Notes under the pieces: generated by a model
Told to the model about the DNA's origin: nothing
The model's database searches: none
What the model saw: only the letters and a program-made list of their open reading frames with translations
Shown: piece after piece, positions 12,809-16,745 of the stretch
Layout: each line of letters starts with the position of its first letter
How positions within the stretch are numbered: the first letter of the stretch is position 1
Source of the DNA: Bryobacteraceae bacterium
GTDB taxonomy: Bacteria; Acidobacteriota; Terriglobia; Bryobacterales; Bryobacteraceae
DNA: 36,840 nucleotides
Direction of reading: 5' to 3'
NCBI GenBank assembly: GCA_035577325.1
Contig: DATLVQ010000838.1
Coordinates: 1-36,840, forward strand
Program-made: the position numbers and the translations under genes

Positions 12809-14323
12809 ATGTGGGCTCCGCAGAGTTGGCCGCAGCGCCAAGCGCTGGAATGTCCCGCGCGCTTCCTGCTATTTGGCGGCGCGGCCGGTGCCTTGAAGAC
12901 CGAAACCGCGCTCATGGACGCAATCAAGTACCGTGAGAATCCTCGCGCGAAATCCCTCCTCTTCCGTAAAACCTCCAAAGAAATGTTGCAAATGATCGAA
13001 CGTGGCGATGAGCTCTATCGCCAGTTTGGGGCAGAACCGCGCGGAGGAACCTACAACCGTCACTACATCTTTCCGTCCGGTATGCGTGTCTACATGACCG
13101 GCGCCGGGAAGGACGACAAGGGCATCTACCAGTGGCAGAGTTGGGAATTCGACTACATGGGCGGCGACGAGGCCGGCATGTTTCTCGAAAAACCAATCCG
13201 CTGGCTGATTGCTCGCAACCGTACTTCTGACCCATCGCTTCAGAATCGCTTACGCATCCGCCTTTATACGAATCCGGCCGGACCCGGCGTCAGTTTCATG
13301 AAGCACGCCTTCATCGGACCTGGCTGTCACCATTGCACGATCGAAAGGGATGAGAACGGCAACCGCCTGACTCGCGAGCCATACCACATCTATCGAGACG
13401 CGGAGTGGGAGAGCGACCGACACAAGATCGGAATGAGCACGTGCTTTATCCCCGGAAAGCTCTCGGACCACAACCTACTCCCGGATTATGAAACGACGAC
13501 GCTGGCCACGTTGACGGCTGCTGACCGGAAGAAGCTGAAAGAAGGCTGCTGGATATCGCTGGAGGGAAACTACTTCAGCAACTTCGATATCAAGACGATG
13601 GTCATACCTCGTCAGAAGGTCGGGGATGAGTGGTGGTGGAATCACTGGATGGGAGCCGACTACGGGTTCCGCGGATCGGCGGCTGCGGCTGGCTTGTGGG
13701 TGAAGAGGCCAGCCCCGAAACCTTCAGAAGCAAATCCGAATCCACGACCGTGCTCCATTTTGATTGAGGAGTACGTATCTCGGAATGAGGCCCCTGACGC
13801 ATTTGGACGCACATTGAAAAGTCGATGGCTTGACCGCTCGGACGGCCAGACACGGCGCGTGATGGCCGGATATCTTGGGCCTGACTCATTCGCTCAACGA
13901 GACGATCAGCACACGATCGCGGATCAGATGATTGACGGCTCTGGATATGGATGGGAGGAAGCTTCGAACGACCGGGCTGGCGGCGCATTGCTGTTCTATT
14001 CTGGTCTGGATAATGGCCATATCCTCATCGCTGACAACTGCAAGCAGGCGATTCAATGTCTCCAGACCAGGCAGATTGACCCAAGCGACTCGCGAAAGGT
14101 GCGTAAAGACGTAGGCGACACATTTGACGATATTTGGGATGGGGTCCTACGCTACCCCACATACAGCGAATTCAGAGCGGCACGGGAACCAAACGACGTG
14201 CGCCTAAAGCGCATTGCCGCAGAGATGAAGGACGTAGACCCAACATCAAGGGCTATTCGGATGCGGGAAGAAAGAGCCGCGATGCAAGCCGAAGGGCGCC
14301 CGATCAGCTACCGGAGGCGGTAA
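12809..14323 (+). CDS. terL: terminase large subunit
   Basis: There is a P-loop-like FLLFGGAAGALKTE near the N-terminus and a Walker-B-like YMGGDEAG. The C-terminal half is nuclease-like (WMGADYGF ...). Size (504 aa) and context fit. Confidence 0.8.
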   Translation: MWAPQSWPQRQALECPARFLLFGGAAGALKTETALMDAIKYRENPRAKSLLFRKTSKEMLQMIERGDELYRQFGAEPRGGTYNRHYIFPSGMRVYMTGAGKDDKGIYQWQSWEFDYMGGDEAGMFLEKPIRWLIARNRTSDPSLQNRLRIRLYTNPAGPGVSFMKHAFIGPGCHHCTIERDENGNRLTREPYHIYRDAEWESDRHKIGMSTCFIPGKLSDHNLLPDYETTTLATLTAADRKKLKEGCWISLEGNYFSNFDIKTMVIPRQKVGDEWWWNHWMGADYGFRGSAAAAGLWVKRPAPKPSEANPNPRPCSILIEEYVSRNEAPDAFGRTLKSRWLDRSDGQTRRVMAGYLGPDSFAQRDDQHTIADQMIDGSGYGWEEASNDRAGGALLFYSGLDNGHILIADNCKQAIQCLQTRQIDPSDSRKVRKDVGDTFDDIWDGVLRYPTYSEFRAAREPNDVRLKRIAAEMKDVDPTSRAIRMREERAAMQAEGRPISYRRR

Positions 14324-15755
14324 TCCGATTCCACAGCTTCACAAACGCTATTGATGCACTGTCCGGCGCTACTCCATTTCCGACGCATCGGAGTTGATCG
14401 ACACGGTTTGCCAATCCGGAGGCCAACCCATCAGCCAAGCGGCGAAGCGCGGGTTGAGCCTCCTGTTCTTCTGGGGTTGGGCCATCAACCACGAGAAACG
14501 GGGCAAGCTCGGGGTAGGCGTCGATGATGGCTGGCCATCTTGGGTCGTTGGGTCCGGGGGCGAAGCGTGGAAGAGTTGCTCGGCTGCTTCGTCCAGTTGG
14601 CCGCGTCTCTGTCCCGGCTTCGATGATCCCTTGTGGTCGTTGGCGCTGGGAGTCGGCCTGGCCGACTCCCATGCTGATACCTGATTCCGCAACCGCTGAT
14701 CCGATGTCGCCATTTCTTCCGTTCCGTATCTCTCTGCTCCGTGCTGATCCTGCACGTGATCCCGCGTGGTCGGCGTCCCCCATAACTTCATCACCCCGTC
14801 CAAGCTGTCCGCTTCCCGATCCGCTCTCTTGCCGCCCTGCTTCTCCGCGTCCATTTGTCGAGGTGTTGGCCAGTTCTGTGCTGCATTGATCAGGTCGTGA
14901 TCCTTGTAGTGGTGATCCGCCATTGTGTTGCTGCGCGCCCCTCCTGCGTCGTGATGTTGCGGTGTCGGCAGGATCGATGGAATATTCTTGGTCCGATTCT
15001 CCAATCCGCTTGGATGGTGATCCCTCTCGCTTGGTGATCTCCATTGCGTTGCCTGCTTCGCAAACTCCCCGCCGCATCCGTAATCCCCGCTCGCCTCCTG
15101 CCCCATCATCCCGTGGGGAGTTTTCCAATTGGCCTGAGAGGGTTCCCATGTCGTCGTCGTCGTCTGTAAATTCTCGCCGCCGTCCCGCCCCTCGGTTCCG
15201 GGTCCAGTTATGCAGTTCGCCGTTGGCGACGGCCAACACAAAGAAGCGCTCTCTCTTGTGGCTCGCGCCGACTTCCTCCGCGCTAAAGAGTCCTGCCTCA
15301 AACCGGAAACCCATGCCGCATAATCTTTCTCCGATGGGCTGGAAAAACTTAAGCTGCCCTGGGACGTTTTCGAGAAAGACCAAGGCGGGTCGCACTTGAT
15401 CGATGATGTCGAAGGCACCGGGCCAGATTGCTCGCTCGTCTTCATGACCCTTGCGTGCGCCGGCAACGGAGTAAGGTTGACACGGCAATCCCGCAATGAC
15501 TGCATCCACGATTCCATGCCAAGGGCGACCGTAGAAGGTGGTAAGGTCAGACCAGATAGGCGCGTCAGGAAGTTGGCCTTCTGCCATGCGCGCCGCCAGT
15601 ACTGCGGCTGCATAAGCTTCCCTCTCGACGTGACAGACTGTGCGAGCGCGTCCCAATCCGGCTCTCTCGCAACCTTCGGAGAATCCCCTTCCGAGCATTC
15701 CGACGCCAGCGCAGAGTTCAAGCACGTTGATGGTAGGTAAATCCACATGTGTCAC
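14304..15755 (-). CDS. dcm: DNA (cytosine-5)-methyltransferase with a long low-complexity insert
   Basis: Motifs present are LELCAGVGMLGRGF (I), GLPCQPYS (IV), ENVPG (VI), HKRERFFVLA (VIII) and RVDQLRCVGNGVAP (X). The track ORF extends to a GTG at 15875, but the GTG at 15755 overlaps the upstream stop as GTGA and is preferred. Confidence 0.9.
   Translation of the reverse strand: MTHVDLPTINVLELCAGVGMLGRGFSEGCERAGLGRARTVCHVEREAYAAAVLAARMAEGQLPDAPIWSDLTTFYGRPWHGIVDAVIAGLPCQPYSVAGARKGHEDERAIWPGAFDIIDQVRPALVFLENVPGQLKFFQPIGERLCGMGFRFEAGLFSAEEVGASHKRERFFVLAVANGELHNWTRNRGAGRRREFTDDDDDMGTLSGQLENSPRDDGAGGERGLRMRRGVCEAGNAMEITKREGSPSKRIGESDQEYSIDPADTATSRRRRGAQQHNGGSPLQGSRPDQCSTELANTSTNGRGEAGRQESGSGSGQLGRGDEVMGDADHAGSRAGSARSREIRNGRNGDIGSAVAESGISMGVGQADSQRQRPQGIIEAGTETRPTGRSSRATLPRFAPGPNDPRWPAIIDAYPELAPFLVVDGPTPEEQEAQPALRRLADGLASGLANRVDQLRCVGNGVAPDSASIAFVKLWNRITASGS
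14369..15748 (-). other. 459-codon alternative-frame ORF nested in the C5-MTase gene (+1 frame), coding status unresolved
   Basis: Track ORF. Its ATG lies 4 nt after the upstream gene's stop. It carries seven W/L-P-[ST]-P boxes and a terminal LNPRFAAWLMGWPPDW box. See the findings. Confidence 0.3.
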
Positions 15756-16630
15756 GCTTTCATCTCCGAAGGTTCCACGGAAGCAAATAGCCCTGCCTGG
15801 GTGGTTTCTGCTGCCTTCAGGTTGAGCAACGCCTGCTTGAAGTAACTCGGCTTCAGTTCGATGCCAATAAAGCACCGGCCGCGCTGTACGGCGACGTAGC
15901 CTTCAGAACCGATGCCCATGAATGGAGATAGCACCAAGTCTCCGGGGTTGGTCCATAGGTCGATAGCACGTTCGATCACGTCAAGCTGCAGGGGGCAAAT
16001 GTGGCGCTCGTCTGCGGCTTCTCGAGCTCCATCCCGGTTCAGGGTCCGCGAAGGATTAATATCCATCCAGACGGGTGAGGCATAGCGCTGCCAGACCTCG
16101 ATACTGTAGCGCGTGGCATCGTCAATGTTTCCGCACGAGATCCCGCCGAGTCCTTCCGGCGAGAACTTGTGACGCTTCTCGTAGTTGGTGATATTGATCC
16201 CCGGCTTAATGTCGGATTGGCTCTCGCAAAGATTGACTTTATAGCCAAACTTGGGAGCCTCTTCGAGAGCGGTCTGTTCGGCGACACAAAGCGGAGCGAA
16301 GCAGAGAACAGGCAGGCCAGTGTGCAAACTGACGTGCCGCGACCATTCCATACCTTGAGTCGTTTTCGTCATCCCGCAATCTTCAAAGAATGCAGCCTTG
16401 CCGCGCTTCAATCCCCATCGGACAATGGCTGCGGACCATTCGAAACCGTCAGCGCGAAGTGCTTTCTTGATGCGCGACAGTGGCACGTCGAAACCGCAAG
16501 GCTTTGCGCTGAAGTCCTTGCTGCGCAGAAAGTCTTCATACTCCAATCGTACTGCCAGTGCATCTGCCATGTGATCCGCGCTCCCAATGTCGATTAGGTG
16601 TTTTGTGCTGAGTGGTTGAGTGGCGCTCAT
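15752..16630 (-). CDS. N6A/N4C-type DNA methyltransferase-like protein lacking motif IV, with a helicase-like N-terminus
   Basis: The C-terminus reads HICPLQLDVIERAIDLWTNPGDLVLSPFMGIGSEGYVAVQRGRCFIGIELKPSYF, a typical AdoMet motif I region of the beta-class N4/N6 family. No (D/N/S)PP(Y/F/W) tetrapeptide occurs anywhere. The N-terminal segment GLKRGKAAFFEDCGMTKTTQGMEW...APLCVAEQT resembles SNF2-type helicase motifs I/Ia with a degenerate Walker A. The start is either ATG 16630 or GTG 16699. Confidence 0.65.
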   Translation of the reverse strand: MSATQPLSTKHLIDIGSADHMADALAVRLEYEDFLRSKDFSAKPCGFDVPLSRIKKALRADGFEWSAAIVRWGLKRGKAAFFEDCGMTKTTQGMEWSRHVSLHTGLPVLCFAPLCVAEQTALEEAPKFGYKVNLCESQSDIKPGINITNYEKRHKFSPEGLGGISCGNIDDATRYSIEVWQRYASPVWMDINPSRTLNRDGAREAADERHICPLQLDVIERAIDLWTNPGDLVLSPFMGIGSEGYVAVQRGRCFIGIELKPSYFKQALLNLKAAETTQAGLFASVEPSEMKA

Positions 16631-16745
16631 CGTGTTGGGCGCTTCTTGCAGTGAGGTTCGTGCTTGATGCGTTCGGTTGTGGACATTGACTTTCGGCACC
16701 AGTTGCAGTTGACCATTACGGGCGGTCGGCCCTTGCGTGTTTTCA

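Follow-up and report, generated by a model that had tools for sequence, protein, structure and literature searches.

The gene at positions 14304-15755 (minus strand) of contig DATLVQ010000838.1, assigned to a Bryobacteraceae bacterium (assembly GCA_035577325.1; the 36,840-nucleotide stretch that was analysed is called the window below), probably encodes a DNA (cytosine-5) methyltransferase made of two polypeptides, which are read from two open reading frames (ORFs) that overlap on the same strand. Judged by which frame carries the constraint, the coding path alternates A-B-A-B-A along the gene, and shared nucleotides serve both frames solely at junctions of a few codons. In the proposed model, the alpha chain (frame A) would contribute the whole catalytic large domain, i.e., motifs I-VIII together with a segment of the form PGP..W..LAP and the helix of motif X, joined by a disordered linker of ~190 residues that would be nothing other than the out-of-frame reading of the functional region of beta. 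The beta chain (frame B) would start at its own ATG 7 nucleotides (nt) downstream of the alpha GTG, read ~170 unconstrained shadow codons over the catalytic domain as a dispensable leader, and then supply the WxTP region (the presumed recognition domain) together with motif IX, which make up the small domain of a C5 methyltransferase. Fragment complementation between alpha and beta would yield one active enzyme.

Two frames and five segments

Both full-length frames described in the initial annotation were recovered on the minus strand from the ORF listing and the sequence. Frame A (14304..15755) codes for 483 amino acids (aa), its longest ORF form beginning at 15875, and it corresponds to the protein called publicly for the window sequence (P0001), for which a GTG start at 15755-15753 is likely. 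Frame B (14369..15748, 459 aa) lies in the +1 frame relative to frame A and is nested wholly within it. The overlap is exceptional, as had been claimed, because it spans 460 codons and the next longest same-strand overlap in the window spans only 128. All boxes previously quoted from the two frames were present where they had been placed, and the frame-A boxes VANG, LENS, MEIT, PADT, LANT, MGDA, QADS, and RRLADGL are the same DNA as frame-B boxes, read one nucleotide earlier. The segments (S1-S5) and boxes are as follows:

14304..15755, minus strand: frame A ORF (alpha), in which S1 (motifs I-VIII) is followed by an unconstrained linker, then S3 and S5 (motif X)
14369..15748, minus strand: frame B ORF (beta), with an N-terminal shadow, S2 (WxTP boxes), the shadow of S3, and S4 (motif IX)
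15231..15755, minus strand: S1, catalytic large-domain part, in frame A (motif I 15681-15722, motif IV 15468-15491, motif VI 15357-15371, motif VIII 15231-15260); frame B merely held open
14573..15235, minus strand: S2, in frame B, with seven W/L/R-x-[ST]-P boxes and on as far as GQLDEAAEQL; presumably the target-recognition region
About 14580-15230, minus strand: frame-A reading of S2, a disordered, unconstrained, stop-free linker
14499..14564, minus strand: S3, FAPGPNDPRWPAIIDAYPELAP (PGPxDxxxWxxIxxxxPxLAP), in frame A
14411..14458, minus strand: S4, motif IX box LNPRFAAWLMGWPPDW (LNPxFxxWLMGxPxxW), in frame B, with RRLADGL (14424-14444) as its shadow in frame A
14334..14405, minus strand: S5, motif X (RxDxLRxxGNGV) and helix, RVDQLRCVGNGVAPDSASIAFVKL, in frame A
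15215-15235, minus strand: frame-B box WPSPTAN
15110-15127, minus strand: frame-B box WKTPHG
15020-15043, minus strand: frame-B box WRSPSERD
14948-14971, minus strand: frame-B box LPTPQHHD
14849-14872, minus strand: frame-B box WPTPRQMD
14759-14782, minus strand: frame-B box WGTPTTRD
14627-14659, minus strand: frame-B box RPTPSANDHKG

Frame A carries the C5-methyltransferase motifs LELCAGVGMLG (I), GLPCQPYS (IV), ENVPG (VI), HKRERFFVLA (VIII), and GNGVAP (X), and had been described as holding the complete Dcm motif set. This description does not stand, since motif IX is absent from it and its match to PF00145 covers only profile positions 2-168 (E 5e-24); frame B in turn matches positions 216-303, weakly. 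In a chain of the PF00145/Dcm type, motifs VIII and X flank a recognition region and motif IX, and in frame A neither is found there, residues 203-392 being disordered and unconstrained.

Selection on each frame

The frame under selection was assigned to each segment by counting the mismatches per codon phase of frame A (a1/a2/a3) in DNA alignments of moderately close pairs. The nearest intact relative of the window is L168. The counts were:

Window and L168, S1: 17/13/51, wobble in frame A
Window and L168, S2 block WKTPHG..QW: 10/3/3, wobble in frame B (b3)
Window and L168, S3 region (frame-A codons 394-433, about 14457-14576): 8/5/20, wobble in frame A (a3)
Window and L168, S4: 6/1/2, wobble in frame B
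L033 and L040, catalytic part in 40-codon windows: 1/2/9, 1/1/6 and 1/1/5, wobble in frame A
L033 and L040, middle: 11/0/1 and 19/0/0, wobble in frame B
L033 and L040, end: 4/1/8 and 7/4/16, wobble in frame A

Family-wide column identities follow the same order. In S1, frame A (0.3-0.8) is more conserved than frame B (0.15-0.38) until the last 8 codons, and in S3 the values are 0.3-0.6 for frame A vs. 0.1-0.2 for frame B. The relation is reversed in S4, where frame B (LNP.F.EWLMG.P.GWT) reaches 0.7-0.9 and frame A (RRVADG) 0.2-0.5, and from R.D.L+..GNGVVP onward (S5) frame A is again at 0.6-0.9 with frame B low. The functional overlap of the frames is limited to ~3 codons (R-V-D in frame A, G-W-T in frame B), where the middle codon of R-V-D is restricted to NTG (Val, Met, Leu) because of the frame-B Trp. 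The guanine-cytosine (GC) content by codon phase agrees with the alternation, the plot for the window alone being weakly discriminating.

The conservation of frame B as a protein over the catalytic domain was considered and rejected, given the higher frame-A identity up to the last 8 codons of S1 and the near-background identity of third positions there (a3 0.31-0.44), i.e., the synonymous sites of frame A are not markedly conserved. Since the constraint in this part lies on frame A and not on frame B, the frame-B strings RASPSA, SSWKTSQ, and MTVTSGRK are shadows of PCQPFS, VFLENVPG, and DDRYLWPE, respectively. By the same comparison, the first 170 residues of frame B, including strings such as SFSKTSQG, are read as a shadow of frame A, and the frame-A [LVM][AG]D[ST] linker and RR.ADG as shadows of the frame-B WxTP boxes and F.xWLMG. 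A simpler A-B-A composite with two compensating indels was also dropped, as homologues conserve the C-terminal PGP..LAP of frame A.

These patterns modify two of the explanations offered initially. Genuine dual coding or a frameshift isoform had been proposed, and selection on both frames is indeed present and both have the look of translated frames, although the selection alternates segment by segment and frameshifting found no support. It had further been suggested that two types of methyltransferase tail are frameshift relatives preserved together in this gene; R.D.LR..GNGVVP and PGP.D..W..P.LAP are real frame-A segments, but the low-complexity linker and RR.ADG are a mere frame-A shadow and define no separate type. 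Nor does frame B have the character of an overprinted de novo gene, as it holds ancestral methyltransferase segments and the constraint alternates instead of overlapping.

Maintenance of both open frames

Synonymous-codon shuffles were run on 45 non-redundant loci, with 300 trials for the window. Across the middle part coded by frame B, frame A was stop-free in all 45 loci, where 2-10 stops are expected and a stop-free outcome has a mean probability of 0.07 per locus; in the window, none of the 300 shuffles left frame A stop-free there (mean of 4.8 stops expected). Over the catalytic part, 2.7% of the window shuffles left frame B stop-free. Thirty of the 45 loci have a stop-free frame B over 157-170 codons of this part (mean probability 0.09), and in the other 15 the opening of frame B sits just upstream of motif IV. 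Upstream of the point where motif VIII ends, frame B is open for about 100-190 codons, and for at least about 97 in nearly all loci; no more than about 10 codons separate its own end from the frame-A stop. By comparison, the +2 frame stays open over only 3-70 codons at the same loci, and unrelated C5 methylases from the same scan are open for 14-19 codons.

Loci with a different distribution of segments also have ORF extents that, on sequence grounds, fit the two-chain prediction. In L166 (P0161), S2-S5 all lie in frame B and frame A terminates ~130 codons past motif VIII, while in L084 and L085 frame A holds motifs IX and X, and frame B terminates just before motif IX. Separately, frame A is broken soon after motif VIII, or segments occur in the third frame, in L030, L048, L057, L077, and L158, and also in L014 and L020; decay of the copies, sequencing errors, or additional variants of the split may account for this.

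Segments as parts of one enzyme

In gp77 of Mycobacterium phage Girafales, the catalytic motifs, five LPTP boxes, W..Y..AI..WE..AP, F.EWMMGWPAGW, and GNGVCP all occur in one frame, and in P0161 the segments S2-S5 are likewise in a single frame. In profile searches, the window frame-A protein matched phrog_29583 along its whole length, by which some PHROG families are shown to have been built from frame-A reads including the shadow linker. The separate profile search of frame B that had been recommended gave phrog_1008 ('DNA methyltransferase', E 6e-22); its protein matched no model in NCBIfam, and PDB sequence searches with frame B and its profile returned only a spurious match to the MS2 coat protein.

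AlphaFold2 (AF2) modelling of frame A, for which 58 homologues were used, gave the following values of the predicted local distance difference test (pLDDT):

Residues 1-190 (S1): pLDDT 85-97
Residues 203-392 (linker, shadow of S2): pLDDT 32-42
Residues 400-420 (S3): pLDDT 66-76
Residues 433-439 (RRLADG, shadow of motif IX): pLDDT below 50
Residues 451-483 (S5): pLDDT 73-96

The confidence for alpha is thus low exactly over the stretches coded by frame B. With Foldseek, the frame-A model aligned to M.HaeIII and M.HhaI over ~176-193 columns, with template modelling (TM) scores of 0.42-0.45 normalised to the ~325-residue targets, and we read the aligned part of the model as the large domain. In the AF2 model of beta, motif IX is the most confident part of the C-terminal half (pLDDT 72-85).

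Translation starts

The 5' end of the gene in the window reads GGAG-N8-GTGACACATGTGG and is shared with the end of an upstream methylase ORF:

15752..16699, minus strand: upstream N6/N4 DNA methylase ORF, in the same frame as frame B (PF01555, E 4e-13)
15746..15767, minus strand: shared start region, with GGAG (15767-15764), GTG (15755-15753), TGA (15754-15752), and ATG (15748-15746), the latter followed by TGG

The frame-B ATG follows the upstream in-frame stop closely, as had been pointed out, and lies one codon after the TGA at 15754-15752, which ends the upstream methylase ORF, closes frame B, and overlaps the frame-A GTG (GTGA). This stop/start overlap suggests translational coupling with the upstream methylase, and termination-reinitiation at the TGA could feed both starts. 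A frame-B ATG close behind a stop is common in the family: among 133 non-redundant loci in which frame B is open across motifs IV-VIII, an ATG lies 0-6 codons past an upstream in-frame stop in 74, where ~15 are expected by chance. About half of the inspected viral loci read RTGAATGTGG or a near variant, with the frame-A start on the TGA and then the frame-B ATG-TGG. We conjecture that the ATGTGG core would offer an ATG to frame B and, at a distance of 2 nt, a GTG to frame A, and that the two starts may compete. In K1H, L130, L097, and L069, where frame B starts internally, GGAG or GAGG precedes the start by 7-9 nt.

Frame-B-type proteins in the databases have the same MW.. start, with Trp2 and Pro6 at least 90% conserved. 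The conserved N-terminus is MW[LI]x[VL]P (in L002, L008, L022, L031, L034, L063, and others), the remainder of the N-terminal 170 residues being unconstrained; this peptide overlaps frame-A motif I in one subgroup and lies ~8 codons upstream of motif I in another. A different start was seen in L127, L142, L146, L120, and L138, in which frame B begins 128-188 nt upstream of motif IV and opens with a recognition-type LLPTPT box that overprints the frame-A region between motifs I and IV, i.e., the catalytic half.

At the other end of the gene, a 504-aa ORF (12809-14323, plus strand) converges on the methylase gene with a 3' overlap of 20 nt (14304-14323); a Pfam search with it gave no match at E ≤ 1e-3.

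Recurrence across phages and bacteria

The layout was followed in 80 viral and 80 genome loci that encode relatives, together with GenBank phage regions and nearest-homologue contigs. More than 100 independent loci from phages, isolate genomes, and metagenomes share it, at GC contents of 40-72%, and in the great majority of the loci collected, the frame of the WxTP boxes and of NPxFxEWLMGxP is +1 relative to that of motif IV, with GN[GA]VVP in frame 0. The isolate genomes include Alistipes putredinis DSM 17216, Paenibacillus alvei DSM 29, and Niabella aurantiaca DSM 17617. Compensating indels introduced by assembly error or decay, another of the explanations in the initial annotation, are refuted by this recurrence, since compensating assembly errors are ruled out where independent isolates and GenBank phages have the same layout. 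Frame B, which had been flagged as in need of a check for stops in homologues, is open in close and distant ones.

A profile of the frame-B type finds 42,882 clusters at 50% identity, 28,198 of them at E ≤ 1e-10. The frame-B protein of the window has 199 homologues, and among the 120 listed only P0225 carries a Pfam family. A search of GenBank phage DNA with the gene returned only short matches in the motif IV region and no close relative.

The closest partial relative, L167 (the Logan contig of P0018), has a one-base frame break in S1 (about 1500-1650), so that its called protein starts out as frame-B shadow and then changes to frame A; the break may be an assembly error or decay. In the same locus, the WxTP region is swapped for a shorter and different set of boxes between flanks that are ~83% identical, which suggests modular exchange of the recognition region.

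Alternative explanations

Several points weigh against the two-chain reading. Selection on both frames supports only indirectly that alpha and beta are both made and both required for methylation, and we presume that the two associate and that target recognition is a role of the WxTP region. Compared with a gene in one frame, the layout brings no saving of DNA, and its advantage is unexplained, as is the fact that frame B always opens upstream of motif IV even though that stretch is not conserved as protein. The AF2 model of beta alone is poor (mean pLDDT 54). Finally, the frame-B ATG of the window has no well-spaced Shine-Dalgarno sequence, the GGAG being 15 nt upstream, and for this reason frame-B initiation probably needs coupling to the termination of the upstream methylase.

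A single chain produced by programmed ribosomal frameshifting, with +1 shifts after motif VIII and before motif IX and -1 shifts before S3 and before motif X, is an improbable alternative. The order of the segments along the DNA is the canonical single-chain order of Girafales gp77, the junction overlaps are so short that a chain shifting at them would retain nearly all conserved residues, and one +1 shift would suffice in type-2 relatives such as L166. The window itself, however, would require four shifts, and there is no in-frame stop or rare-codon pause at the VIII/WPTP junction and no conserved nucleotides or slippery motifs between S3 and S4, with both frames open end to end. Frameshifting also leaves unexplained why frame A is open through S2 in 45 of 45 loci and why frame B is open from a conserved 5' ATG. 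In the commonest subgroup, moreover, the frame-A Arg of R.D lies upstream of the frame-B Trp of GW, and one chain cannot hold both.

We consider it quite improbable that frame B is translated into a protein with a separate function (an overprinted accessory or regulatory protein, e.g., 'Mte8-like') and that alpha works alone. Proteins resembling frame B are annotated as hypothetical, without a Pfam or NCBIfam family, and K1H labels its frame-B ORF separately, which would be in keeping with an independent role. Against this, alpha is left without motif IX and without a structured region between motifs VIII and X, frame B bears a clear motif IX, and the boxes share a chain with the catalytic motifs in Girafales gp77 and with motif X in P0161.

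That frame B is an untranslated shadow held open by composition, or that the gene, through compensating indels, is mis-assembled or in decay, is hardly credible: long alternative ORFs can occur in GC-rich genes and the close relative L167, a Logan assembly, has a frame break inside S1, yet by the wobble patterns frame B is under purifying selection in S2 and S4, most loci have an open frame B at GC contents of 40-72% despite a shuffle probability of no stop of only ~0.03-0.09 per locus, and the comparative data, with the layout recurring in isolate genomes and independently sequenced phages, already refute it.

Comparison with known systems

The two-chain, nested C5 methyltransferase that we propose for the window is already known as a kind from M.EcoHK31I of E. 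coli (Lee, Kam and Shaw 1995). According to published descriptions, M.EcoHK31I requires alpha (motifs I-VIII plus X) and beta (motif IX), beta is encoded wholly in another frame inside alpha, and its N-terminal part is partly dispensable (PMC2836561, PMC3404938). The window is alike in that alpha has motifs I-VIII plus X and beta has motif IX, and in that beta is nested in alpha in another frame with its own start. In the same sources, the target-recognition domain of M.EcoHK31I is predicted to belong to alpha, and a short internal ORF encodes beta (PMC2836561, PMC3404938). Set against that account, the window differs in that its WxTP region (between motifs VIII and IX) is on beta, with an unconstrained linker in alpha at that place, and in that its beta spans nearly the full length of alpha, starting 7 nt after the alpha start.

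M.AquI of Agmenellum quadruplicatum is a natural two-chain C5 methyltransferase (PMC3404938), and M.BspRI, M.BsuRI, M.HhaI, and M.SssI are active when artificially split (PMC2836561, PMC3404938). The relative L166 (P0161) is split like M.AquI, with motifs I-VIII on one chain and the recognition region, motif IX, and motif X on the other; the window differs from M.AquI in having motif X on the chain with motifs I-VIII and motif IX on the other.

Girafales gp77 (L163, 520-2265) has the same segments in the same order, including [LW]PTP..D..G boxes and motif IX as F.EWMMGWP.GW, but all of them in one frame, unlike the two alternating frames of the window. In gp77 and in P0098, the sequence from motif VIII to the first LPTP box in frame includes a low-complexity stretch with boxes of the V-A-D-P type. 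In these single-frame relatives, some of the box region thus seems to have shifted out of frame, and changes of frame in the box array seem to be frequent in evolution.

A compact counterpart is found in Escherichia phage K1H, where two overlapping coding sequences are annotated, ORF29 ('C-specific methylase') and ORF28 ('Mte8-like protein'). The second lies in the +1 frame and has WPTPTANDFRG and LNPAHSRWLMGYPPEW, as in the window, and differs in that beta starts 88 nt inside alpha with its own GGAG. The K1H record draws no functional link between ORF29 and ORF28.

Annotation and biological meaning

In the searchable literature, including the GeneTack frameshift survey, no account was found of the frame alternation, of a recognition region on beta, or of the scale of the family. 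We tentatively suggest that the frame-interleaved encoding by two ORFs may be the usual condition in a very large, old family of C5 methyltransferases from phages and bacteria; that the frames are instead stitched into one chain by an unknown recoding route is less likely.

Gene callers choose one frame and miss the other, and public records are inconsistent: only alpha is called in the window and only beta in L164 (2501-3298, a contig from JGI), where the catalytic ORF is missing. In Acidovorax phage Alfacinha1 gp46 (L161, 889-2022), the frame-B product (MWLYIPS...) carries the name 'cytosine-specific methyltransferase', and 'methyltransferase' families with low-complexity linkers in PHROG and other databases partly rest on out-of-frame sequence. 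For methods that detect dual coding, the family offers a natural case and control in which two nearly co-extensive ORFs are both maintained under alternating constraint. Alternation by itself leaves unexplained why the layout is kept; long stretches selected only for openness would, if the reading is true, point to a rationale not yet described, e.g., that start competition at ATGTGG sets the subunit ratio, or that activity is gated by assembly.

Reviews treat two-chain C5 methyltransferases (M.AquI, M.EcoHK31I) as rare, and the family suggests that they are widespread in phages. If this holds, heterodimeric C5 methyltransferases would be common instead of being two curiosities, thousands of proteins labelled 'hypothetical' would turn out to be the recognition subunit that is missing, and the region that determines specificity would sit on a separate, swappable subunit.

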